Source of the DNA: a virus
Taxonomy: Duplodnaviria; Heunggongvirae; Uroviricota; Caudoviricetes
DNA: 51,929 nucleotides
IMG/VR virus record: IMGVR_UViG_2541047794_000002
Location: 1 to 51,929 of that record
Strand: one strand, 5' to 3'
Of this stretch, positions 2,697-16,599 are shown piece after piece (the stretch's first letter is position 1; each line of letters opens with the position of its first letter). A program made the translations under genes and the position numbers. Below the pieces are notes generated by a model. That model made no database searches and was not told where the DNA came from. It saw nothing but the letters and a program-made list of their open reading frames with translations.

Positions 2697-3478
2697 GCTG
2701 CCGCCTTCTGCTCAGTGGCTTTCTGTTTCAGGAATCCAAGAGCTTTCACTGCTTCGGCCTGTGTCAGTTCTGACGATGCGCGAATGTCGCGGCGAAATAT
2801 CTGGGAACAGAGCGGCAATAAGTCGTCATCCCATGTTTTATCCAGGGCGATCAGCAGAGTGTTAATCTCCTGCATGGTTTCATCGTTAACCGGAGTGATG
2901 TCGCGTTCTGGCTGACGTTCTGCAGTGTATGCAGTATTTTCGACAATGCGCTCGGCTTCATCCTTGTCATAGATACCAGCAAATCCGAAGGCGAGACGGG
3001 CACACTGAATCATGGCTTTATGCCGTAACATCCGTTTGGGATGCGACTGCCACGGGCCGGTGATTTCTCTGCCTTCGCGGGTTTTGAATGGTTCGCGGCG
3101 GCATTCATCCATCCACTCGGTAACGCAGATCGGATGATTACGGTCCTTGCGGTAAATCCGGCATGTACAGGATTCATTGTCCTGCTCAAAGTCCATGCCA
3201 TCAAACTGCTGGTTTTCATTGATGATGCGGGACCAGCCATCAACGCCCACCACCGGAACGATGCCGTTCTGCTTATCAGGGAAGGCGTAAATTTCTTTCG
3301 TCCACGGATTAAGGCCGTACTGGTTGGCGACGATCAACAATGCGATGAACTGCGCATCGCTGGCATCGCCTTTAAATGCTGTCTGGCGAAGAGTGGTGAT
3401 CAGTTCCTGTGGGTCGACAGAATCCATGCCGACACGTTCAGCCAGCTTCCCTGCCAGCGTTGCGAGTGCTGTACTCAT
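2693..3478 (-). CDS. bet: Recombinase Bet (Red-beta, single-strand annealing protein)
   Basis: 261 aa, near-identical to lambda Bet; overlaps the exo start. Confidence 0.95.
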
Positions 3479-3483
3479 CCGTT

Positions 3484-3780
3484 TTATACCTCTGAATCAA
3501 TATCAACCTGATGGTGAGCAATGGTTTCAACCATGTACCGGATGTGTTCTGCCATGCGCTCCTGAAACTCAACATCGTCATCAAACGCACGGGTAATGGC
3601 TTTTTTGCTGGCCCCGTGGCGTTGCAAATGATCGATGCAGAGTGATTCAAACAGGTGCTGGGACAGACCCTTTTCCATGTCGTCTGCCAGTTCTGCCTCT
3701 ATCTCTTCACGGGCGATCTGCTGGTAGTGACGTGCCCAGCTCTGAGCCTCAAGACGATCCTGAATGTAATAAGCGTTCAT
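3484..3780 (-). CDS. gam: Gam, host RecBCD nuclease inhibitor (short form)
   Basis: 98 aa [26 protein letters not shown]... matches the lambda GamS sequence. Confidence 0.9.
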
Positions 3781-3855
3781 GGCTGAACTCCTGAAAATGG
3801 CTGTGAAAATATCGCCCGCGAAATGCCCGGCTGATTAGGAAAACAGGAAAGGGGA

Positions 3856-4146
3856 TTAGTGATTGAGGCCGTTACCGCGTCCGTCGAGAAAAACTTCCAC
3901 GAGCAAATCACGGGTATAAGTGCGCTCGATGCCGCGATGCAGATAAAGCCGTCCGCGTAAATTAGCTGATGCAGTCCAGGTACCATCTTTGTGTTTGACC
4001 AGCATTCCTGGCATGACCGCACCTCGATTAACGGTCTGCGTTCCGTAATGTTGATGAACCATAAAAACTCCTGCCCGTAAGCTGGGCTGCTGAACATATA
4101 GAGACTTCTGCGCGTATTCAGGCGGTGGATGGCCGCCGGTTGTCAT
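3856..4146 (-). CDS. Hypothetical protein, first gene of the leftward early operon (position of kil/cIII/N in lambda)
   Basis: 97-aa ORF from an internal Met of the 3856..4266 ORF; no arginine-rich N-like motif. Confidence 0.4.
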
Positions 4147-4299
4147 AACTAAGCCGCCTCGTTGAAGCGACTGAGGTATGAGGTGTTGAGTTGATTTCAG
4201 CTGGTCACACCGACGTTCACGCGTCCGCTTCACCCCTCGCACTCCCCGGAGCCTGCTGAAATTCAAGCTGCGGATCTAAGCGGTCATCGCAACGGTGAA

Positions 4300-4400
4300 T
4301 CAGGTGATTGCCGTATCGTTGTGTTGTTGCGACATGGTGATAATAGCTATTGCTATTGGCTATATCAATACTTATTGCTATTAATTGATGTGTTTTGATA
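4300..4400. promoter_or_regulatory. Putative OL/PL operator-promoter region
   Basis: AT-rich intergenic region with two copies of ATTGCTATT (about 4349 and 4374), the same motif that occurs twice between cI and cro. Confidence 0.45.
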
Positions 4401-4494
4401 TTAACTGTTTGATAGCAAAAAGAATTAATTTTGTGACTTGCATCGCATAGCGATAACTGAAGCGAGGTCGTGGTGGTTTTTTGAACGGTTTATG

Positions 4495-4528
4495 TGATGA
4501 GGGGAGGCAAAAGAAAACCCGGCACGAC
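4495..4528 (-). terminator. Rho-independent terminator downstream of the 287-aa gene
   Basis: On the minus strand, CCCCGGC-cgtcgt-GCCGGG hairpin followed by TTTTCTTTT, just 3' of the stop at 4540. Confidence 0.6.
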
Positions 4529-4539
4529 GGCCGGGGAAA

Positions 4540-5403
4540 TCATTTCGCATCTACAATAAATAACCTGTTTATCTGGCCTTTTTTAACAGTAGCCTTTGCG
4601 GTTATAGTGAATACTGCAGATGGATCACCTTTGGTTGATATATATGCACTAAGAGCTCTAATATACGGGTTATTCTTCTTTCCTGCAGCTGGATCGCTAA
4701 TTTCAGCAGTGATTCTCTTTTTTGAGTCATCACCATCTAAAATTATTTTAGCTGTCATATTTTGTGCATCAAATTCTGTAAGAAAAGCACGATACTCACG
4801 AAGACCGAGAACTTCATCATCATCAAGCCTATCAATTTCAGCTTTATCTCTCTCGTTAACTTTTAGAAGGCAGCCGTCAACATTTGTTGCAACACTTATC
4901 TGATCGCAAGTATTACCAATAGGTGATACTGCCTGCCTTACAGAGGGGCGAAGCTCTACAGCCATTCGGTCAATCAAAGAGATCAACTTATCAATGGTTC
5001 CAGCATCCTTGTTTCCTAGTGCCTCTATGGCCTTTTCAAGTGACTGCTGCAAAGCTTTCATTTCATCTTTCTTGTTAGAATTTCTCGCAAAAATATATTG
5101 TAGTATTGCGCCAAGTATAGTTGCGGCGATCCCCGAGAACAACTGGTTCTGAGTGGCGAAGTTAAGAACTGCTTCAAGAGTAAAGCAGTTAGCTTTTGCT
5201 TCGCGTGCGTAAACCTTAACTTCCTGATAATTAATGTATTTACTATATTTTTGTGTAACAGAGAAAGAAGCTGCTGTTGAGAGAACTTTAGAAAAACCCT
5301 TTAGGGATTCTCCTAGGCAGTTCAAATCTATTTCATGATTTAAAGCATCTTTTCCGTCATACCTAAGAGAGATTTTTATATCCTGTAAAGCGTCACAATC
5401 CAT
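4540..5403 (-). CDS. Unknown 287-aa protein in the immunity region directly downstream of cI (rexAB position); candidate lysogen-expressed exclusion/defence gene
   Basis: Long AT-rich ORF, co-directional with cI, followed by its own terminator. One hydrophobic segment ([18 protein letters not shown]). No recognised domain. Confidence 0.6.
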
Positions 5404-5469
5404 AAATCGCTCTCGTCTAATTCTAATTAAATTTACTATCCCCTAAACGACTCATCAGCACAGTACTGA

Positions 5470-6162
5470 TTATCCATGTTTCCTGTACGTCTGGGGCATG
5501 CTCCCAATAACCTTACCGAAGATGAACACCCGGTTCATCTCGTCTTTCTCGATCGGGTCCCACGGTGAGTAGCTCTTGTTATCAGAGATAACCAGCAGCT
5601 TATCCTTCATCATTTGCAGGCGCTTTACATGGGCGGTGTCGTCGTACAGAAACGCATAGATGCCATCACCGTCGAAAGATTTAACCGTGATATCAACGAA
5701 CAGAAGATCACCAGGTTCAATCGTTCCTGACATGCTGTCACCGCGTACGTTAATGATGCGGATATTTTCTGCCTTCCTACCATCGAACATGTGACGAGCA
5801 TCGTCAAACGAGTACTCAACCGAGCGTAGAACTTCTACAAACTCACGGTTGATGACTCCCGGCCCGGCACTCACTTCTATATCAAGAACGTCAATCTTGA
5901 AGTATTTGGGATGGTTGGCAGTAGGCTTCCCTAATTGTTGACCGTCATTTCTCATCGGGCCTATGCCTGATGAGAGCCACTCTGTTCGAACACCCAATGC
6001 ATTAGCTATTTCAACAATTTTTGTTGAGCCGCGCGCGTTGCCGCTTGTCAGTCTCCAGATTGTGGGTTGAGCTACGCCAGACGCCTTTGCAAGAGCGCCT
6101 TGAGACATTCCAGATTGTTCCATCGCTAGGTTTAAGCGATCAGCAAGAGTTTCTTTTTTCAT
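5470..6162 (-). CDS. cI: CI-type prophage repressor (HTH plus S24 LexA-like peptidase domain)
   Basis: N-terminal HTH (SQGALAKASGVAQPTIWRL) and C-terminal S24 motifs (GDSM...KRL). ATG at 6160-6162 sits directly at the operator region, compatible with a leaderless PRM transcript as in lambda. Confidence 0.85.
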   Translation of the reverse strand: MKKETLADRLNLAMEQSGMSQGALAKASGVAQPTIWRLTSGNARGSTKIVEIANALGVRTEWLSSGIGPMRNDGQQLGKPTANHPKYFKIDVLDIEVSAGPGVINREFVEVLRSVEYSFDDARHMFDGRKAENIRIINVRGDSMSGTIEPGDLLFVDITVKSFDGDGIYAFLYDDTAHVKRLQMMKDKLLVISDNKSYSPWDPIEKDEMNRVFIFGKVIGSMPQTYRKHG

Positions 6163-6272
6163 AAGTTTTAATTTATACGCTTGCGTATTGATGGTCAAAA
6201 CACGTTTTGCTATTGCTATGATTAATACGCATTGCTATTATTTATTCATTGTAATACCAATAGGAATTAATA
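6163..6272. promoter_or_regulatory. Putative OR / PR / PRM divergent promoter-operator region
   Basis: Intergenic region between divergent cI and cro with two ATTGCTATT copies (about 6207 and 6231). Confidence 0.55.
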
Positions 6273-6500
6273 ATGACAAATCAAACCATTCAACTCGCAA
6301 TCAGTATTACAGGTAGTCAAAAACGACTGGCAGATCTATGCGGTGTAGCCCAGCCCACTGTTTGGCGTTGGCTACACGGTGGCGGAATTGATGCCCGCTA
6401 TGTAATGAAAATTGTCTCAGCCACTGGTGGAAAGATTAAACCAGCAGATATTCGTCCCGACCTCGCACCATTGTTTAACGCGAGTAATTCTGCCGCCTAA
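6273..6500 (+). CDS. cro: Cro-like HTH regulator
   Basis: 75 aa with HTH (QKRLADLCGVAQPTVWRW), divergent from cI. Confidence 0.8.
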   Translation: MTNQTIQLAISITGSQKRLADLCGVAQPTVWRWLHGGGIDARYVMKIVSATGGKIKPADIRPDLAPLFNASNSAA

Positions 6501-6524
6501 TCTGCGGCGTTAACTGATAAGGCA

Positions 6525-7070
6525 ATGACTATGCAACCACTTACATACCAACAGACTAGCGGATTTAGCCCGACTGCGGTGATAAATCGTTCTCAAACAA
6601 AACAGGCGCCAGGCCACGAAAAAATCCGTGATGCCGTTCGCGCCTGGTCGGCTGCAGATAATCAGGATGTTGTTGCCGCACTCATTGTGAATGAGTATCG
6701 GGAGCAGGGCGGCGGCACCATCGATTTCCCTGATGATGTCAGCCGTGCACGCCAGAAGCTGTTCCGCTTCCTCGATAACAAATTCGATTCTGAAAAATAC
6801 CGAAATAACGTGCGTGAACTGACCCCGGCAATTCTGGCGGTACTACCGCTGGAATATCGCGGCCACCTGGTTGAGCAGGATAGCTTCATGGCTCGGCTGG
6901 CTGAAATGGAAAAGGAACTCAGTGAGGCAAAACAGGCTGTCATTCTCAACGCACCACGCCACCAGAAACTGAAGGAGATGAGTGAAGGCATTGTGTCGAT
7001 GTTTCGTGTGGACCCGGATCTGGCTGGTCCACTGATGGCGATGGTCACCACCATGCTGGGGGCAATATGA
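6525..7070 (+). CDS. YdaT-family protein (CII-position regulator)
   Basis: 181 aa; ...YREQGGG...LTPAILAVLPLEYR... resembles Rac prophage YdaT; sits between cro and O. Confidence 0.65.
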   Translation: MTMQPLTYQQTSGFSPTAVINRSQTKQAPGHEKIRDAVRAWSAADNQDVVAALIVNEYREQGGGTIDFPDDVSRARQKLFRFLDNKFDSEKYRNNVRELTPAILAVLPLEYRGHLVEQDSFMARLAEMEKELSEAKQAVILNAPRHQKLKEMSEGIVSMFRVDPDLAGPLMAMVTTMLGAI

Positions 7071-7156
7071 CAGGTTCGGAAATGGCGAAAGCCGGTCTGC
7101 GCGAACAGAACCGACTTTCAGGTGCAAATCGTAACACACTCATTGCGGGAGGAATT

Positions 7157-8086
7157 ATGGCAAACACTGCTGAGATATTCAATTTTCCAGTGCCGGATGT
7201 GGCACAAAAGGAGCCGCGCGTGGCAGATCTCGATGATGGTTATACGCGCATTGCAAATGAGTTGCTGGAAGCTGTGATGCTGGCCGGATTAACACAGCAC
7301 CAGCTTCTGGTCTTCCTGGCTGTCATGCGCAAAACATATGGCTTTAATAAAAAACTGGATTGGGTGAGCAACGAGCAACTTTCCGAGTTGACCGGGATAT
7401 TGCCGCACAAGTGTTCTGCTGCAAAAAGTGTTCTGATAAAGCGTGGGATTTTTATTCAGAGCGGGCGGAATATCGGCATTAATAATGTGGTCAGTGAATG
7501 GTCAACATTACCCGAATCAGGTAAGAAAAATAAAGTTTACCTGAAAGAGGTAAATTTACCTGAATCAGGTAAGAAAAGTTTACCCAAATCAGGTAAAGAC
7601 GTTTACCCGAATCAGGTAAACACAAAAGACAAACTAACAAAAGACAATATAAAACCTTTTTCGTCCGAGAATTCTGGCGAATCCTCTGACCAGCCAGAAA
7701 ACGATCTTCCTGTGGTGAAACCGGATGCTGCAATTCAGAGCGGCAGCAAGTGGGGGACAGCAGAAGACCTGACCGCCGCAGAGTGGATGTTTGACATGGT
7801 GAAGACCATCGCGCCATCAGCCAGAAAACCGAATTTTGCAGGGTGGGCTAACGATATCCGCCTGATGCGTGAACGTGACGGACGTAACCACCGCGACATG
7901 TGTGTACTGTTCCGCTGGGCATGCCAGGACAACTTCTGGTCCGGTAACGTGCTAAGTCCGGCCAAACTCCGCGACAAGTGGACCCAACTCGAAATCAACC
8001 GTAACAAGCAACAGGCTGGCGTGACAGCCGGAAAATCAAAACTCGACCTGACAAACACTGACTGGATTTATGGGGTGGATTTATGA
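7157..8086 (+). CDS. O: Replication initiator O
   Basis: From the ATG preceded by GGAGG: MANTAEIFNF...VADLDDGYTRIANELLEA... matches lambda O; C-terminus nearly identical to lambda O. Confidence 0.9.
   Translation: MANTAEIFNFPVPDVAQKEPRVADLDDGYTRIANELLEAVMLAGLTQHQLLVFLAVMRKTYGFNKKLDWVSNEQLSELTGILPHKCSAAKSVLIKRGIFIQSGRNIGINNVVSEWSTLPESGKKNKVYLKEVNLPESGKKSLPKSGKDVYPNQVNTKDKLTKDNIKPFSSENSGESSDQPENDLPVVKPDAAIQSGSKWGTAEDLTAAEWMFDMVKTIAPSARKPNFAGWANDIRLMRERDGRNHRDMCVLFRWACQDNFWSGNVLSPAKLRDKWTQLEINRNKQQAGVTAGKSKLDLTNTDWIYGVDL
7500..7615. repeat. ori iterons inside the O gene
   Basis: Four tandem copies of about 19 bp, TTACC(C/T)GAATCAGGTAA(G/A), as in lambda ori-lambda. Confidence 0.8.
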
Positions 8087-8784
8087 AAAACATCGCCGCA
8101 CAGATGGTTAACTTTGACCGTGAGCAGATGTGCCGGATCGCCAATAACATGCCGGAACAGTACGACGAAAAGCCGCAGGTACAGCAGGTAGCGCAGATCA
8201 TCAACGGTGTGTTCAGCCAGTTACTGGCAACTTTCCCGGCGAGTCTGGCTAACCGGGACCAGAACGAACTGAACGAAATCCGCCGCCAGTGGGTTCTGGC
8301 TTTCCGGGAAAACGGGATCACCACAATGGAACAGGTTAACGCAGGAATGCGCGTAGCCCGTCGGCAGAATCGACCATTCCTGCCATCACCCGGGCAGTTT
8401 GTTGCCTGGTGTCGGGAAGAAGCATCCGTTACCGCCGGGCTGCCAAACGCCAGCGAGCTGGTTGATATGGTTTACGAGTATTGCCGGAAGCGTGGCCTTT
8501 ATCCGGATGCAGAGTCTTATCCATGGAAATCAAACGCGCATTACTGGTTGGTTACCAACCTGTATCAGAACATGCGAGCCAATGCGCTGACTGACGCGGA
8601 ATTACGGCGCAAGGCTGCCGATGAACTGACCTGTATGACAGCGCGAATTAACCGTGGTGAGGCTATACCTGAACCAGTAAAACAAATTCCTGTCATGGGC
8701 GGTAGACCTCTAAATCGTGCACAGGCTCTGGCGAAGATCGCAGAAATCAAAGCTAAGTTTGGGCTGAAAGGAGCAAGAGTATGA
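8083..8784 (+). CDS. P: Replication protein P (DnaB helicase loader)
   Basis: 233 aa, near-identical to lambda P; start overlaps the O stop. Confidence 0.9.
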   Translation: MKNIAAQMVNFDREQMCRIANNMPEQYDEKPQVQQVAQIINGVFSQLLATFPASLANRDQNELNEIRRQWVLAFRENGITTMEQVNAGMRVARRQNRPFLPSPGQFVAWCREEASVTAGLPNASELVDMVYEYCRKRGLYPDAESYPWKSNAHYWLVTNLYQNMRANALTDAELRRKAADELTCMTARINRGEAIPEPVKQIPVMGGRPLNRAQALAKIAEIKAKFGLKGARV

Positions 8785-9083
8785 CGGGCAAAGAGGCAAT
8801 TATTCATTACCTGGGGACTCATAAGAACTTCTGTGCGCAGGACGTTGCCGCGGTAACAGGCGCAACCGTAACCAGCATAAATCAGGCTGCGGCTAAAATG
8901 GCGCGGGCAGGAATCCTGGTCGTTGATGGTAAGGTCTGGCGAACGGTGTATTATCGGTTCGCTACCAGAGAAGAACGGGAAGGAAAGGTGAGCGCGAATT
9001 TGATTTTTAAGGAGTGTCGCCAGAGTGCCGCGATGAAACGGGTATTGAGGGTATATAAAAGAACATCAATGGGTACACAATGA
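8781..9083 (+). CDS. ren: Ren (Rex exclusion relief protein)
   Basis: MTGKEAIIHYLGTHKNFCAQDVAAVTGATVTSINQAAAKMARAG... matches lambda Ren. Confidence 0.85.
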   Translation: MTGKEAIIHYLGTHKNFCAQDVAAVTGATVTSINQAAAKMARAGILVVDGKVWRTVYYRFATREEREGKVSANLIFKECRQSAAMKRVLRVYKRTSMGTQ

Positions 9084-9150
9084 TGAAACAGGTGAGTTGA
9101 GTTCAAACTGTAGTACAATTCTCTCCAGTTTGAACAGGAAAGAATATGCT

Positions 9151-9483
9151 ATGAACCCTTATATTTATCTTGGTGGTGCAATACTTGCACAGGTCATTGG
9201 TACAACCTTAATGAAGTTTTCAGAAGGTTTTACACGGTTATGGCCATCTGTTGGTACAATTATTTGTTATTGTGCATCATTCTGGTTATTAGCTCAGACG
9301 CTGGCTTATATACCTACAGGGATTGCTTATGCTATCTGGTCAGGAGTCGGTATTGTCCTGATTAGCTTACTATCATGGGGATTTTTCGGCCAACGGTTGG
9401 ACCTGCCAGCCATTATAGGCATGATGTTGATTTGTGCCGGTGTGTTGGTTATTAATTTATTGTCACGAAGCACACCACATTAA
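9151..9483 (+). CDS. emrE: Small multidrug resistance (SMR) efflux transporter EmrE
   Basis: From internal Met: MNPYIYLGGAILAQVIGTTLMKFSEGFTRLWPS... is the E. coli EmrE sequence (DLP12 prophage cargo). Confidence 0.9.
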   Translation: MNPYIYLGGAILAQVIGTTLMKFSEGFTRLWPSVGTIICYCASFWLLAQTLAYIPTGIAYAIWSGVGIVLISLLSWGFFGQRLDLPAIIGMMLICAGVLVINLLSRSTPH

Positions 9484-9738
9484 AAATAATTTATTTTTAA
9501 ACGACTAAAATATGGAGGTTCGTATATTTGTATGGGCCTCGTTTTATGCTTTTTGTTAATGTCTTTAGTTTTTATTCATTCTTTTGAACTTTCAAGATTA
9601 TGGTGTAAGAAAATTGCAATACGATTATTGTTGTATATTCAAGATAATGTGACCTTAATTGTCTTTTTAAATAAAAATTAAACAAAAATCATATCTCACC
9701 ACTAAGGTTTATAAAAGCATACTTTAGCAGGTGTCACC

Positions 9739-11265
9739 ATGAAAAAAGCCATAGCATATATGCGATTTTCATCACCAGGTCAGATGTCTGGTGATTCATT
9801 AAACCGCCAGAGAAGGCTTATTACTGAATGGCTAAAGGTAAATAGTGATTATTACCTTGATACCGTAACGTATGAAGATTTGGGGTTAAGCGCATTCAAT
9901 GGAAAGCATGCACAATCAGGAGCTTTTTCGGAATTTTTAGATGCTATAGAACATGGTTACATATTGCCAGGGACTACATTGTTAGTTGAAAGTCTGGACA
10001 GACTTTCAAGAGAAAAAGTCGGTGAAGCGATTGAGCGTCTGAAATTGATTTTGAATCACGGTATTGATGTTATAACTCTTTGCGATAATACAGTCTATAA
10101 TATAGACTCATTGAATGAGCCATATTCATTAATAAAAGCCATACTTATAGCACAAAGGGCAAATGAAGAAAGCGAGATAAAGTCAAGTCGGGTTAAATTA
10201 TCATGGAAGAAAAAACGGCAGGATGCACTGGAATCAGGCACGATTATGACGGCGTCTTGTCCGAGATGGCTCTCATTGGATGACAAAAGAACAGCTTTTA
10301 TTCCAGACCCCGACAGGGTGAAAACGATTGAGCTAATTTTTAAACTCAGGATGGAAAGGCGATCATTGAATGCAATAGCTAAGTATTTAAATGATCATGC
10401 TGTAAAAAATTTTTCAGGAAAAGAAAGTGCATGGGGGCCTTCTGTAATTGAAAAATTATTAGCGAATAAAGCTCTGATAGGTATATGCGTACCTTCATAT
10501 CGTGCAAGAGGGAAAGGGATAAGTGAAATCGCTGGCTATTATCCCAGAGTCATATCAGATGATTTGTTTTACGCTGTACAGGAAATTCGGTTGGCACCTT
10601 TTGGTATTAGCAATAGTAGCAAGAATCCTATGCTAATAAATCTACTTCGAACAGTTATGAAGTGTGAGGCTTGTGGTAATACCATGATTGTTCATGCGGT
10701 ATCTGGACGTTTGCATGGCTATTATGTTTGTCCGATGAGAAGATTACATCGATGTGACAGGCCATCAATAAAAAGAGATTTGGTTGATTATAATATCATT
10801 AATGAATTGCTTTTTAATTGTAGCAAAATTCAACCAGTTGAAAACAAGAAAGATGCTAATGAAACTTTAGAGTTAAAAATTATTGAGCTTCAGATGAAAA
10901 TTAATAATTTAATCGTTGCATTGTCTGTCGCGCCTGAAGTTACCGCTATAGCAGAGAAAATAAGACTATTAGATAAGGAATTACGAAGGGCTTCGGTATC
11001 ATTAAAAACTTTGAAGAGTAAAGGGGTGAGTTCACTTGGTGATTTTCATGCTATTGATTTAACCAGTAAAAATGGGCGAGAGCTATGTCGTACACTTGCC
11101 TATAAAATATTCGAAAAAATTATAATTAATACAGATAATAAAACCTGTGATATCTATTTTATGAATGGCATTGTTTTTAAACACTATCCTTTAATGAAAG
11201 TAATATCCGCCCAGCAGGCGATAAGCACTCTTAAATATATGGTTGATGGTGAGATTTATTTTTGA
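9739..11265 (+). CDS. ybcK: Large serine recombinase (YbcK-like)
   Basis: 508 aa; N-terminal resolvase motif YMRFSSPGQ with catalytic Ser; AT-rich gene. Confidence 0.8.
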   Translation: MKKAIAYMRFSSPGQMSGDSLNRQRRLITEWLKVNSDYYLDTVTYEDLGLSAFNGKHAQSGAFSEFLDAIEHGYILPGTTLLVESLDRLSREKVGEAIERLKLILNHGIDVITLCDNTVYNIDSLNEPYSLIKAILIAQRANEESEIKSSRVKLSWKKKRQDALESGTIMTASCPRWLSLDDKRTAFIPDPDRVKTIELIFKLRMERRSLNAIAKYLNDHAVKNFSGKESAWGPSVIEKLLANKALIGICVPSYRARGKGISEIAGYYPRVISDDLFYAVQEIRLAPFGISNSSKNPMLINLLRTVMKCEACGNTMIVHAVSGRLHGYYVCPMRRLHRCDRPSIKRDLVDYNIINELLFNCSKIQPVENKKDANETLELKIIELQMKINNLIVALSVAPEVTAIAEKIRLLDKELRRASVSLKTLKSKGVSSLGDFHAIDLTSKNGRELCRTLAYKIFEKIIINTDNKTCDIYFMNGIVFKHYPLMKVISAQQAISTLKYMVDGEIYF

Positions 11266-11589
11266 GTAATAATCACTTTTTCAACCGTGCTATGGTATGA
11301 AAGTAAAGTAACTACTATGATATTAACTATCTTGAACGAAGCGCCCTGAGCTATAGTTTTACTATAGGCACTGCCACTGGATGTTGGCATTCTCGCTCTA
11401 GTAGCTCAACAATACCCAATCACAAAACAATTCACTGATAACAAACTTTGTGCACGTGCTTAGTTATGGCGAACAGGTGATGTTAACCTCCTGCCAGAAT
11501 GCCACTCCACTTCATTAAGTATCTGAGCACCGAGAGGCTGGTCACGCCCCCATTAAAAATAATTTCTTTTGAATCGAGTGAAATAGGTT

Positions 11590-11615
11590 AGCCCGCATAA
11601 GTGCGGGCTGCTTTT
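11590..11615 (+). terminator. Putative rho-independent terminator
   Basis: GCCCGCATAAGTGCGGGC hairpin followed by TGCTTTTT. Confidence 0.5.
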
Positions 11616-12658
11616 TACAGGTCAGCGTTTGTTTTTTGTTGTTGGGTAGCGGTTTTTATGGGGGTTCCCAGGTTTTTAGTAAACCACTCAACAACTCTGT
11701 TTATAATAATTGGCTGATACCATGTATTATCGCCATGCTCAGCCCCTTCTACCAGAACGTACTCAGCGTTATCGCCGTTCTTCTTCAACATCCTGAATAG
11801 TTTGGCGCTTTGCTCAGGTGAAACCAGAGTGTCTTTGCTACCATGCATAATAAGAAATGGGGGGTTTACTCCTTTCATATGTCCGATTGGACTGGCGTTT
11901 AGCGCTTTTTCTTTTGACGCTGTGATGGGGGCTCCCGCAAAATTTCTGAATGCAGGGCCATTGATCATTAAGGCTTCGGTTACGGCAGGAGAGCGATGAA
12001 CCTCCTGCACTGATTCAGGGAACCCCTCGCCAATATTCAACAAGTCAGAAATCCCATAAAGTGTGGCAACTGCCTGAACATCTGAGGATTGCTGAAGAAA
12101 GTCACCTTTATCAAAGGTTTTGTCACCATTTGTAGTTCCCATCATCTGAGCAAGCCATCCACCGGCAGAGTCACCCAGAACTCCGATTCTTTGAGGATCA
12201 ATCCCATAATTGCTGGCATGCTCTCTCAGGTAACGTATTGCAGCTTTTCCATCCTCAACTGGTGCTGGAAATGTATCAGGAATTGTTCTGTATTCTACAG
12301 CGGCCACAACAAAACCAGCTTCTGCCAGAGCCATTCTCATTTCAATAAATTTGTCATGTTCAGAAGACATGAATCCGCCGCCGGGATAATAAATAATGGC
12401 TGGTTTTAAATCATTTGTTCGCGGGACAAGAACTGACATGTGAAGCTGTCTGACAGAACGAGTTCCTTTTATCTGGGAATAAACAACATCACCAATGAGA
12501 TCGACCTGGTTTCTGGTCGGTGAAACACTAATGATATCTGCACCCGGGGTGTAACCAGGAAGATTAGTCTGGACAGGTGTTGCACAACTCCCGACCGACA
12601 TGGCCATTGACATACCATACAATAGTGTTGCAGATGATAATATCTTGTTAATTTTCAT
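11615..12658 (-). CDS. Secreted lipoprotein alpha/beta-hydrolase (esterase/lipase-like)
   Basis: 347 aa; signal peptide with lipobox (MSVGSC); GDSAGG nucleophile-elbow motif and HGSKD motif. Confidence 0.8.
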   Translation of the reverse strand: MKINKILSSATLLYGMSMAMSVGSCATPVQTNLPGYTPGADIISVSPTRNQVDLIGDVVYSQIKGTRSVRQLHMSVLVPRTNDLKPAIIYYPGGGFMSSEHDKFIEMRMALAEAGFVVAAVEYRTIPDTFPAPVEDGKAAIRYLREHASNYGIDPQRIGVLGDSAGGWLAQMMGTTNGDKTFDKGDFLQQSSDVQAVATLYGISDLLNIGEGFPESVQEVHRSPAVTEALMINGPAFRNFAGAPITASKEKALNASPIGHMKGVNPPFLIMHGSKDTLVSPEQSAKLFRMLKKNGDNAEYVLVEGAEHGDNTWYQPIIINRVVEWFTKNLGTPIKTATQQQKTNADL

Positions 12659-13105
12659 GTTTTACATGCCTTGACTTATCGGATGAAATTCTCTTACTGA
12701 ATTTAACGGCAGTTTAATAGCCGTACAACTCGTGGTAGCCAGGGAAATATCCCAGTCGTGGTTAAGGTTGTACTTGACGGCTATTATTTCAACAATGCTT
12801 AAAGTGAGAGCTTAAGGTTATGCGTATGTTTTACAGTCCGAGTAGATTCTGACCAATAGCTTCTTTGTATAATTCTGTCAGAAATAAATCTTGGCTTGCA
12901 TGAAGTTTGAGACCTTATCTTGTTTGATTATGAATAATCAATTCGCCATAATTGTATCACCGGAGCCTGAACAACTCCGGTGACTTCTGCGCTAAACGGG
13001 GACGTTTATGCGCACACACAATCCAAACTCTCTTCTCCCTTCACAGATGCAGAAATGCACCTGCGTTTTTTTGCATCCAGCGTCTGACCTCTGTGGAGGT
13101 GAAGC

Positions 13106-13561
13106 GTGAACCTACCACAAGATGGCATCAAACTGCATCGCGGTAACTTCATCGCTATCGGCCAGCAGATCCAGCCTTATCTGGAGAACGGAAAATGCTT
13201 TCGCATGGTGCTTAAACCGTGGCGTGAGAAACGCAGTCTTTCCCAGAATGCACTCAGCCACATGTGGTACAGCGAAATCAGTGAATACCTCATCAGCAGG
13301 GGGAAATCGTTCGCTACCGCAGCATGGGTAAAAGATGCTCTCAAACACACATACCTCGGTTATGAAACCAAGGACCTGGTTGATGTCGTAACCGGCGAAA
13401 TCACTACTATCCAGTCGTTACGCCATACCTCCGATCTCGATACCGGAGAGATGTATGTCTTCCTGTGTAAGGTTGAAGCCTGGGCGGTGAATATTGGCTG
13501 CCACCTGACTATTCCGCAGAGCTGCGAGTTCCAGCTGCTGCGCGACAAGCAGGAGGCGTAA
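13106..13561 (+). CDS. ybcN: NinB-like recombination protein (YbcN)
   Basis: 151 aa matching DLP12 YbcN. Confidence 0.85.
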
Positions 13562-13731
13562 TGGCTACACCGCTTATTCGTGTCATGAACGGACACATCT
13601 ACAGAGTACCAAATCGTCGTAAGCGTAAGCCTGAGCTGAAACCATCCGAAATACCAACACTGCTCGGATATACCGCCAGCCTGGTTGATAAAAAATGGTT
13701 GCGACTGGCAGCAAGGAGGAATCATGGCTGA
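13561..13731 (+). CDS. ninE: NinE-like small protein
   Basis: 56 codons [56 protein letters not shown]; start overlaps the ybcN stop (TAATG). Confidence 0.7.
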   Translation: MATPLIRVMNGHIYRVPNRRKRKPELKPSEIPTLLGYTASLVDKKWLRLAARRNHG

Positions 13732-14014
13732 TTTGAGAAAAGCAGCACGTGGTCGGGAATGCCAGGTAAGAATCCCTGGCGTATGTAATGGCAATCCTGA
13801 AACGTCAGTACTGGCACATATCCGGCTGGCTGGATTGTGCGGCACCGGTATTAAACCGCCAGACCTTATTGCCACCATTGCATGTTCTGACTGTCACGAC
13901 GAGATCGACCGTCGCACGCATTTTGTTGACGCTGGATATGCAAAAGAATGCGCGCTGGAAGGTATGGCGAGAACGCAGGTTATCTGGCTGAAAGAGGGGG
14001 TAATTAAGGCGTGA
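13724..14014 (+). CDS. ybcO: YbcO (DLP12 nin-region protein with a conserved Cys/His cluster)
   Basis: From internal [40 protein letters not shown]... matches DLP12 YbcO; Cys/His cluster. Confidence 0.85.
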
Positions 14015-14373
14015 ATACTTACCATATCACACTACCCTGGCCGCCGAGCAATAATCGCTATTACCGCCATAATCGTGGGCGCACGCACGTCAGCGCAGAG
14101 GGGCAAGCATACCGCGATAATGTCGCCCGAATCATTAAAAACGCAATGCTGGATATCGGCCTGGCTATTCCTGTGAAAATCAGCATTGAGTGCCACATGC
14201 CGGATCGCCGTCGCCGTGACCTTGATAATCTGCAAAAGGCCGCTTTTGACGCACTCACCAAAGCAGGTTTCTGGCTGGATGATGCTCAGGTCGTTGATTA
14301 CCGCGTTGTGAAGATGCCCGTTACCAAAGGTGGGAAGCTGGAGCTGACCATCACCGAAATGGGGAATGAATGA
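14011..14373 (+). CDS. rusA: RusA Holliday-junction resolvase
   Basis: 120 aa; [23 protein letters not shown]... is E. coli RusA. Confidence 0.9.
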
Positions 14374-14510
14374 TATTTGAGTTTTATATGGCAGAACGTC
14401 TTCGCCACCGCTGGATGCGCCTGCGCTTATATCGTTTTCCTGGTTCTGTTTTGGCCGATTACCGGATACTGAAGAATTACGCCAAAACACTGAAAGGAGC
14501 ATGTGTATGA
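14370..14510 (+). CDS. ylcG: YlcG small protein
   Basis: 46-aa [49 protein letters not shown] overlapping the rusA stop. Confidence 0.65.
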
Positions 14511-14595
14511 AGTCAGAGATAACAATCGACTAATACTGTTTTGTTGATTTTTGCTTGTAATTGGCGTTCTGGCCTAATTTTTGTGGAGTAAGTTG

Positions 14596-14979
14596 ATGCG
14601 TGATGTTCAGATGGTTCTTGAGCGTTGGGGGGCGTGGGCAGCTAATAATCATGAAGATGTGACCTGGTCGTCCATTGCTGCCGGTTTTAAGGGATTAATT
14701 CCTTCAAAAGTAAAATCTCGCCCGCAATGTTGTGACGATGACGCGATGATCATTTGCGGGTGCATGGCCCGTCTGAAAAAGAACAACAGCGATTTACACG
14801 ATTTATTAGTAGATTATTATGTATGTGGTATGACATTCATGTCACTGGCAAGTAAGCATTGCTGCTCGGATGGTTATATCGGGAAAAGGTTACAGAAGGC
14901 TGAGGGCATAATTGAAGGGATGTTAATGGCATTAGATATCCGGTTAGATATGGATATCGTTGCTAATAATTCTAATTGA
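14596..14979 (+). CDS. quuD: Late-gene antiterminator Q (Q82/QuuD type)
   Basis: From Met at 14596: [33 protein letters not shown]... matches DLP12 QuuD. Confidence 0.85.
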
Positions 14980-15120
14980 TATGCAATTGTTTACTAAAAG
15001 TTATTAAAAATGGGGCGTGGAAACGCCCCCAAAATAAAGGGTAATATATAACAGAAGGTTTATATAGTAAGAAGCAAGGTAGTGCTTCTAAAGGAAGTGG
15101 CTTGAGGGCTCCACTTATAT

Positions 15121-15158
15121 GTTGCGGAGGCAAAGCCTCCCGCAACATATCTTTTTCG
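15121..15158. terminator. Hairpin terminator between quuD and the convergent nmpC
   Basis: GTTGCGGAGGC-aaa-GCCTCCCGCAAC perfect stem followed by ATATCTTTTT. Confidence 0.55.
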
Positions 15159-15167
15159 TAAGTCAGA

Positions 15168-16250
15168 TTAGAACTGATAAACCAGACCTACAGCGACGAT
15201 GTCGTCGGTATCAATACCAGCTGTTTTGGTAAACTTACTATCGTCAATTAAGTTGATTTTGTAATCAACAAAAGTGGACATGTTTTTATTAAAGTAGTAA
15301 GTAGCACCGACATCGACATACTTGACTAAGTCTCGGTCACCATGAACACCAAGGTCTTTACCTTTTGACTGAAGGTAAGCAACAGATGGGCGCAGACCGA
15401 AGTCAAACTGATATTGTGCTACTGCTTCAAAGTTTTGTGCTTTGTTTGCAATATGGTTATTACCAAAAACGGTCATATTCTGAGTTTCAGAATATGTGGT
15501 AGCCAGATAGATATTGTTCGCATCATATTTCAGGCCTGCAGCCCATACTTCCGCATTTTTGCCGGAGGCATTGAATTTGCTCTTACCATAGGCGACCTGA
15601 CCGTCAGTGCGATCTGATTTAGCATAGGTTGCACCCACGCCGAATCCTTCATACTCATAAGTAGTGGAGAAACCGAAACCATCACCATTGGCTTCAGTTA
15701 CGTCAGTGCGGTCATTTTTACCCTGATACTGAGCAGCAAAGTTCAGGCCATCGACCAGACCAAAGAAGTCGTTGTTACGATAAGTTGCAACACCAGTAGT
15801 GCGACCAGTCATGAACACATCTGTTTGGGTCCAGGTATCACCACCGAATTCTGGCAGAACGTCAGTCCACGCACCGATGTCGTATGCTACACCGTAGTTA
15901 CGGCCGTAATCGATTGAGCCGTAATCACCAAATTTCAGGCCTGCAAATGCAAGACGGGTTTTGTCTTTGGAAGAACCTTGAGATTCAGCACGGTTGCCTT
16001 TGAATTCATATTCCCACTGACCGAAACCAGTCAGTTGATCGTTGATTTGGGTTTCACCTTTGAAGCCAAGACGGGCATAAGTAGTATCACCATCATCTGC
16101 ATCATTAGAGGAGAAGTAGTGCTTGGCATTAACTTTCCCGTATAGATCCAGCTTGTTACTGTCTTTATTATAAATTTCAGCTGCCTGAGCAGACATCGCC
16201 ATCAGTACTGATGCAGCTACAGCAGAAATTGCCACTGTTAATTTTTTCAT
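15168..16250 (-). CDS. nmpC: Outer-membrane porin NmpC (OmpC/OmpF family), intact
   Basis: From [23 protein letters not shown] signal peptide; 16-strand porin sequence ending in the C-terminal ...VGLVYQF motif. Confidence 0.9.
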
Positions 16251-16599
16251 TGTACGCCCTTTTTTTGAACTATTATTAAAAAATGATGTCACTGCGCGAT
16301 AAATATTCATCTAATCAATGTGATTATTTCAAGATGTAAGTTTTAGTTTCTCATTTAATTTGTGAAGTAGATCTCTATTTTTATCTGAACCTTTTCTATC
16401 TAATCCTATTCATGGCTCTTGTTTGAACGAAAATAAATCTATTAGCTAATTTATATTAATGGCACTTATTTATAAGCGCTCTATAATTCTTTAGCTTAAT
16501 TTAAACAAACTAAAAATAACATCGGAAATTATTCATTGGTTATTTGTTGAAGTTTTCTTATGTATTTGTGGTGGTGTTTTGAACACTCGGTGGCATTCT

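Follow-up and report, generated by a model that had tools for sequence, protein, structure and literature searches.

The window analysed here, the whole 51,929-nucleotide stretch of IMG/VR record IMGVR_UViG_2541047794_000002, comes from an Escherichia coli lambdoid prophage integrated beside icd. Directly downstream of its cI-type repressor gene lies a gene for a 287-residue protein that consists of the domains DUF7946 and DUF7947 and belongs to the same family as protein 40A of phage phi80. The gene is genuine, is subject to purifying selection and occupies a replaceable cassette slot with conserved backbone on both sides, as alignments with sister phages show. Because this slot after the repressor holds defence candidates in the sister phages, we lean towards the view that the gene is lysogen-expressed cargo of the immunity operon (a "moron") encoding a stand-alone, uncharacterised anti-phage defence protein. 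The cI-to-OL interval of lambdoid phages houses RexAB, the oldest known abortive-infection system, as well as BstA; in a common group of E. coli prophages, it is a clean cassette site, from the cI stop codon to the immunity terminator, that exchanges defence-type cargo.

The gene is an ATG-initiated open reading frame (ORF) of 287 codons at positions 4540–5403 on the minus strand (stop codon included), and no other ORF separates cI from the terminator. Immediately upstream, the neighbouring gene of the same orientation, running from an ATG at position 6162 to position 5470, encodes the 230-residue repressor, with a helix-turn-helix (HTH) domain and an S24 autoprotease domain (Pfam Peptidase_S24, E = 1.3e-18, and HTH_3/Phage_CI_repr; PHROG "transcriptional repressor", 4e-69). 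The 66-nucleotide spacer between the cI stop codon and the ATG (positions 5404–5469, minus strand) is cargo-specific, with sister-phage homology stopping at the cI stop codon, and contains a Shine-Dalgarno-like GAGAG 7–11 nucleotides ahead of the ATG. As this spacer shows neither a terminator-like hairpin nor a match to a sigma-70 promoter on the cI strand, co-transcription of the gene with cI is plausible. The GC content of the ORF is 0.36–0.43, compared to 0.51–0.55 in the flanks, and comparison with a Klebsiella homologue yields a dN/dS of 0.06 (dS 0.88).

The gene and its repressor are bracketed by two putative operator clusters. The octamer TTGCTATT occurs four times in the 52-kb window, as two pairs with a spacing of 25 bp within each pair, and these pairs, at positions 4350–4382 and 6207–6239, flank the cI-plus-ORF unit; the count (four versus an expected 2.3) is not by itself significant, whereas the placement is. 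The left pair (copies at 4350 and 4375) lies in an OL-like cluster of repeats at positions 4340–4410 and overlaps a match to a leftward pL-like promoter (4368→4340, 10/12). The right pair (copies at 6207 and 6232) lies in an OR-like cluster of repeats at positions 6199–6245, in the interval between cI and the cro-like gene, where promoter matches on both strands (6198→6170 and 6213→6241) delineate a putative divergent pRM/pR region. The first-pass annotation, a model's description made from the sequence, had reported an AT-rich gene directly downstream of cI on the same strand, between the putative OR and OL operator clusters and in the position of rexAB, and all of this holds: the order cI, gene, terminator, OL/pL matches cI-rexA-rexB-OL in lambda.

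The same annotation had credited the gene with a strong terminator of its own. An intrinsic terminator is indeed present at positions 4508–4535 (minus strand), with a 6-bp all-GC stem (CCCGGC/GCCGGG, positions 4535–4518) followed by the T-run TTTTCTTTTG, a predicted folding energy of −19.1 kcal/mol and a z-score of −2.67, and it starts three bases past the stop codon. The attribution to the gene does not stand, however: the same stem and T-run are kept in phages 4A7, Perceval, PhiR30_1 and PhiR5_1, each of which carries different cargo. Since sister-phage homology resumes exactly at the stem, the terminator belongs to the backbone of the immunity operon, where it ends the transcript of cI and cargo and keeps transcripts from the maintenance promoter (pRM) out of the pL operon.

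The boundaries of the slot are sharp. About 135 bp comprising the terminator and OL-proximal DNA (positions 4400–4537) are common to 14 sequenced lambdoid phages at 92–96% identity and are found in 1198 of 5426 E. coli genomes, whereas in the alignments homology on the other side ends at the cI stop codon. The survey of genes between cI and OL in related prophages that had been suggested along with the first-pass annotation revealed varied occupants. Phage 4A7, with a cI identical to that of the window at 230 of 230 residues, carries two cargo genes that match the PADLOC models PDC-M11A (2.9e-133) and PDC-M11B (6.8e-52); PhiR30_1, in which the 3′ end of cI is near-identical, has a pair matching PDC-M63A/B; and PhiR5_1 has a HipA-like pair (PDC-M66A/B). 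In Perceval, again with a near-identical cI 3′ end, a 340-residue protein is followed by a 168-residue protein annotated as transmembrane (locus L018, positions 2743–4293), a two-gene layout like that of RexAB, without a PADLOC match. Judging from these alignments, the slot in the backbone-sharing phages is a hotspot for cargo that includes PADLOC defence candidates, in agreement with the literature, where the cI-N interval, home of RexAB and BstA, is already regarded as a mosaic hotspot (PMC8585504). The suggestion that this is a place for superinfection exclusion or abortive infection is thus borne out as far as position and company are concerned; the function proposed for the gene itself follows from association.

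Family membership is unequivocal. DUF7946 (residues 11–191, E = 3.8e-55, 187.2 bits) and DUF7947 (residues 201–287, E = 1.4e-18, 67.1 bits) follow each other from the N- to the C-terminus, both well above the gathering cutoff of 27 bits, and PHROG 5147 matches the protein end to end (1–287 of 287, E = 1.5e-178). The residues G17, S33, G36, P161, G163, D237, P238 and Y247, each conserved in at least 90% of 122 diverse members, are all present. The closest relative with a name is protein 40A of phi80 (PHI80_46, UniProt P14817), which is 62% identical over 99% of the length, has the same two Pfam domains, also belongs to PHROG 5147, and is encoded in the same cI-to-OL place on the cI strand, though linked to a different repressor (23% identity to the window cI) and to a different prophage backbone. 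In the 1988 phi80 record the gene was divided into 40A and 40B. The GenBank label of 40A, "acetate kinase superfamily domain", was not reproduced by Pfam. Literature searches, with Rotman et al. 2012 and Brenes & Laub 2025 lying outside their coverage, returned no functional study of the DUF7946/DUF7947 family or of phi80 40A. The description of the gene as unknown consequently holds for function in the literature searched, but not for kinship, given the two Pfam families, the PHROG and the phi80 homologue.

The family is widespread. At least 1000 contigs encode the exact 287-residue protein, with no label other than hypothetical or DUF7946, and among 5426 complete E. coli genomes 77 carry the gene at an identity of at least 99%. 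When 1.84 billion representative sequences were searched with a profile, 499 clusters at 50% identity were retrieved, nearly all of them 265–320 residues long and with the same architecture. A second, word-indexed search for homologues with the broad alignment contributed hardly anything more. The gene is AT-rich in every host examined (38–46% GC), and this property, together with the strong purifying selection, is a sign of mobile cargo. In one complete E. coli genome (NZ_CM142689.1, positions 833051–834895), the DUF7946 gene is interrupted by the insertion sequence IS1, possibly a sign that the gene can be costly, or simply chance.

About 23 distinct genomic contexts of the family, ranging from Enterobacterales to Neisseria and Vitreoscilla, were sampled, and in about 17 of these the family gene directly follows a lysogeny repressor on the same strand, although the repressors are unrelated. 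Beyond phi80, the linkage extends to the beta-proteobacteria Vitreoscilla and Neisseria; to Erwinia, an Enterobacter metagenome-assembled genome (MAG) and a metagenomic prophage whose homologue is 36% identical; to Morganella, with two repressor alleles in four mosaic prophages; to Rac-like prophages of Klebsiella, in which the repressor is of the RacR type, without an S24 domain; and to three K. aerogenes prophages, Citrobacter and two Proteus prophages. The contexts in Rahnella, a Helicobacter prophage, a Burkholderiaceae MAG and two metagenome contigs are less informative. Two neighbourhoods count in favour of a defence function: in a Serratia island, away from any repressor, the family gene lies beside AbiD (PADLOC, 4.8e-55) and an AlpA regulator, and in Vitreoscilla (locus L009, positions 6661–8274) a SIR2/ThsA-like protein matching PDC-S25 (2e-142) adjoins it in the immunity slot.

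Other neighbours were recorded in these surveys. In a Citrobacter prophage (locus L032, positions 4365–5798), a 477-residue Ser/Thr kinase shares the immunity slot with the DUF7946 gene, and in Erwinia (locus L004, positions 4200–4721) a Tlde1-domain protein is encoded between cI and the DUF7946 gene. In the Serratia AbiD-AlpA island (locus L015, positions 5921–10864), a 146-codon gene follows the DUF7946 gene; this gene and the nearby convergent genes of 850 and more than 562 codons had no Pfam or PADLOC match and may be further uncharacterised cargo of the island.

The predicted structure of the protein comprises four parts. With 122 diverse sequences AlphaFold gave a model with a pLDDT of 91.6 and a pTM of 0.76, compared to a pLDDT of 76 with 18 sequences. 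The N-terminal alpha/beta domain, delineated by the predicted secondary structure and by conservation (residues 9–82; positions 5158–5379, minus strand, as for the following parts), contains the most conserved motif of the family, RYDG.DA..H...L..LG.S..G, with conserved Y15, G17, H23, S33 and G36. It is followed by a long hydrophobic helix of 22 residues (residues 87–108; positions 5080–5145), identified by hydropathy and in the model; this is the one hydrophobic segment that the first-pass annotation had noticed, and it remains the only one (residues 88–106, Kyte-Doolittle 19-residue mean 1.85). The best 19-residue stretch is uncharged in 75 of the 122 family members, and the flanking lysine and arginine residues average 1.07 on the N-terminal side versus 3.05 on the C-terminal side. 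Such a pattern is compatible with a helix that spans the membrane and leaves the C-terminal domains on the cytoplasmic side, but a helix buried in the core agrees just as well with the compact, confident model. In the model, a helical bundle (residues 112–158, with helices 112–128, 134–150 and 152–158; positions 4930–5070) comes next; in distant relatives this region is of variable length and coiled-coil-like, with insertions of 20–80 residues in the relatives P0147, P0173 and P0195. After a conserved P-I-G-x-x-C turn at about residues 161–166, the protein ends in the DUF7947 domain (residues 168–287; positions 4543–4902), modelled as a five-stranded OB-fold barrel that is superposable on known OB domains, with a loop D237-P238...N245-x-Y247 in which D237, P238, N245 and Y247 are near-invariant (Y247 is conserved in 99%). 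A disulphide or metal pair formed by C73 and C166 was considered and rejected: although both residues are conserved, they do not covary (Fisher p 0.37).

Structural comparisons have not led to a functional relative. The OB domain resembles SilF/CusF, RPA, PriB, SSB and the B subunits of AB5 toxins at 7–13% identity, a likeness at the level of the fold only, and the structure it matches best is that of a metal chaperone, SilF/CusF, rather than of a DNA-binding protein. Against the PDB, the 122-sequence profile gave only chance matches (best E = 0.024, prefoldin), and Foldseek against BFVD retrieved three uncharacterised phage proteins, one of them DUF6575, which offer no functional clue. Remote homology searching and structure prediction, both proposed with the first-pass annotation, have thus delivered the domain families, an OB fold and a confident model, but no relative of known function.

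The gene was also compared with known systems. It lies in the slot of lambda RexA/RexB and in the same orientation (cI, cargo, terminator, OL); like them, it is presumed to be expressed along with the repressor in lysogens, and a sensor-plus-membrane-effector logic is plausible. RexA/RexB are, however, encoded by a two-gene operon, as a cytoplasmic sensor and a multi-pass membrane protein, whereas the window gene is a single ORF with one hydrophobic segment. The absence of recognisable Rex similarity reported in the first-pass annotation is confirmed by profile alignment: hhalign gave the family profile a probability of 0.2% against lambda RexA and 0.1% against RexB, no Rex family was detected in Pfam at E ≤ 1, and only position is common to the two. 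BstA of the Salmonella prophage BTP1, an abortive-infection protein, is organised similarly: it is a lone protein made by lysogens, its gene directly follows cI and has a terminator of its own or a shared one, and the synteny beside diverse repressors is likewise conserved (PMC8585504). The 287-residue protein matched no BstA model when scanned with PADLOC, nor did Pfam assign it a BstA-type or DNA-binding domain. Its sole PADLOC match is to PDC-S42, an unvalidated single-gene candidate of about 300 residues, the N-terminus of which aligns with that of DUF7946 (E = 1.5e-4, 19.3 bits, residues 9–127 versus positions 4–113 of the 302-position model). The N-terminal approximately 110 residues of 10 among 24 diverse family members also match PDC-S42, with a best E of 4.1e-6, which suggests that PDC-S42 is at best a sister family of DUF7946. 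A match to NCBIfam LAPAL_fam ("putative phage structural protein") was discarded, with 26 bits against a cutoff of 60 and coverage of the N-terminus only.

If the gene indeed encodes a defence protein, its action can be tentatively outlined. In the lysogen, the gene would be transcribed together with cI from pRM, with transcription stopping at the immunity terminator that shields pL, and the product would shield the lysogen against other phages. The acidic C-terminal OB fold could sense a component of the infecting phage, for which a basic protein or a small ligand would be likelier than naked nucleic acid; binding would free or re-orient the central hydrophobic helix and the helical bundle, and these would then oligomerise or insert into the inner membrane, aborting the infection. 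One polypeptide would in this manner do what RexA, the sensor, and RexB, the membrane effector, do as a pair. Because expression would depend on pRM, induction of the prophage itself would stop synthesis. The predicted architecture is compatible with a sensor plus effector, but the specific assignment of the OB domain as sensor and of the helix and bundle as effector is a further step, to which we would give only a small chance.

The phi80 homologue offers a possible link to a phenotype. On phi80 lysogens, unlike lambda lysogens, T4 fails to plate and the yield of P1 is cut ten-fold, with no gene named as responsible (PMC2885432), and 40A is a candidate for this unexplained T4 resistance. The phi80 Tai system, which targets siphovirus tails, is encoded by orf63 and not by 40A (PMC11364771). 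The most far-reaching version of the proposal, namely that DUF7946/DUF7947 proteins form a new single-polypeptide abortive-infection family, a "one-protein Rex" with an acidic OB sensor that, on recognising a phage protein, triggers a latent, colicin-like buried hydrophobic helix to enter the membrane, and at the same time are the determinant of T4 (perhaps also P1) resistance in phi80, appears unlikely.

Several considerations weigh against a defence function or against the mechanism outlined above. The passage from cargo in a defence hotspot to a defence protein is made by association, which is weak evidence, the more so as the PDC families of PADLOC are themselves unvalidated candidates; the match to PDC-S42 is marginal and confined to the N-terminus instead of spanning the full length, and DUF7946, DUF7947 and PDC-S42 do not occur in the papers searched. 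The protein has no recognisable catalytic or toxic domain or motif. Co-transcription with cI is deduced from sequence alone. As for the membrane step, the hydrophobic helix is not convincingly transmembrane: charged residues interrupt the best 19-residue stretch in 47 of the 122 members, the pTM of 0.76 agrees with a soluble, compact protein in which the helix is buried, and an N-out/C-in topology would mean that the N-terminal domain, 85 residues long, is exported although it has no signal peptide. Most family members have an acidic OB domain (median net charge −5), contrary to binding of single-stranded DNA (ssDNA), the commonest role of OB folds. In the case of phi80, the phage also encodes Tai and Cor, and the T4 resistance is unmapped in the accessible papers.

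Among the alternatives, the one to which we allow the most room, while still judging it improbable, is that the protein is an accessory of lysogeny or host physiology, with a role in repressor stability, induction, stress response, fitness or virulence, and that the side of cI is merely a safe place for insertion. Lysogen-expressed morons with roles other than defence are common. The tight linkage to repressors in about 17 contexts and the lack of a toxic or enzymatic domain would fit such a role, and bstA itself was initially linked to virulence phenotypes (PMC8585504). However, a repressor-directed role is unlikely because the partner repressors are unrelated, ranging from S24 types at 23% identity to RacR types without S24; moreover, the gene is also found away from any repressor, next to AbiD, and other occupants of the same slot match defence candidates. 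Somewhat less probable still is superinfection exclusion at the inner membrane, by a constitutive single-pass anchor with its N-terminal domain outside that would block the entry of phage DNA like P22 SieA or T4 Imm. The lysogen-expressed position beside cI, the uncharged 19-residue hydrophobic stretch at a conserved position in 75 of the 122 members, and the complete loss of T4 plating on phi80 lysogens (PMC2885432) are in line with exclusion, as is the charge distribution in the 65 most hydrophobic members (0.78 lysines plus arginines in the N flank versus 3.45 in the C flank), which fits the positive-inside rule. On the other hand, the protein has no signal peptide for the export of the 85-residue domain that this topology would require, the hydrophobic stretch is not clean in many distant relatives, AlphaFold confidently places all domains in one compact body, and neither Pfam nor PADLOC detects similarity to the SieA, SieB or Imm families.

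A soluble nucleic-acid binder, the OB domain of which would bind phage ssDNA or RNA and block replication or packaging without any role for the membrane, in a BstA-like logic, has a low probability: the aromatic Y247 in the barrel loop would suit such a function, whereas the OB domain is neutral in the window protein and, unlike typical ssDNA binders, acidic across the family, and structurally it resembles a metal chaperone best. The idea that the ORF is a chance reading frame or a decaying remnant in AT-rich spacer DNA can practically be dismissed. The base composition, the lack of an assigned function and the IS1 interruption in one E. coli genome could be cited for it, but it is refuted by the conservation data, that is, the dN/dS of 0.06 and the 499 clusters with one architecture and length, as well as by the high-confidence fold prediction and the occurrence of the exact protein on at least 1000 contigs.

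The significance of the family differs with the outcome. If the proteins are defence factors, as we are inclined to think, they would represent a new fold combination for prophage immunity, one that is not known from characterised defence proteins, and phi80 40A would give a genetic handle on the published, unexplained lack of T4 plating. If they are not, the family becomes a counter-example to calling every repressor-linked moron a defence gene. Either way, one homologue in this widespread cassette family belongs to phi80, a classic laboratory phage, and has gone without an assignment since 1988.

Several other features of the window deserve mention. At the left end (positions 1–411), the C-terminal end of an IS21-family IstB (Pfam, 7.8e-24) abuts what is left of a lambda-type integrase, 71 residues with only the arm-binding domain, whereas in the homologous prophage of another E. 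coli strain the integrase next to icd is intact; because the integrase looks disrupted by the insertion sequence, this copy of the prophage may be unable to excise. No N-like antiterminator ORF was found between the pL-like promoter and kil (positions 3856–4062), that is, at positions 4063–4340, and PGAP annotates nothing there in an identical locus; an Rfam scan of the whole window detected no RNA family. On the other side of the repressor, a YdaS-like HTH protein (positions 6273–6500) and a YdaT-domain protein (positions 6525–7070) occupy the cro and cII positions, as in Rac-type and many other lambdoid prophages. The nin/late-regulator region (positions 9097–16310) contains DLP12-like cargo, consisting of an SMR/EmrE-type efflux gene (9097–9483), a large serine recombinase of 508 residues (9739–11265), and, on the minus strand, a BD-FAE alpha/beta-hydrolase (11615–12658) and an OmpC/NmpC-type porin (15168–16310).

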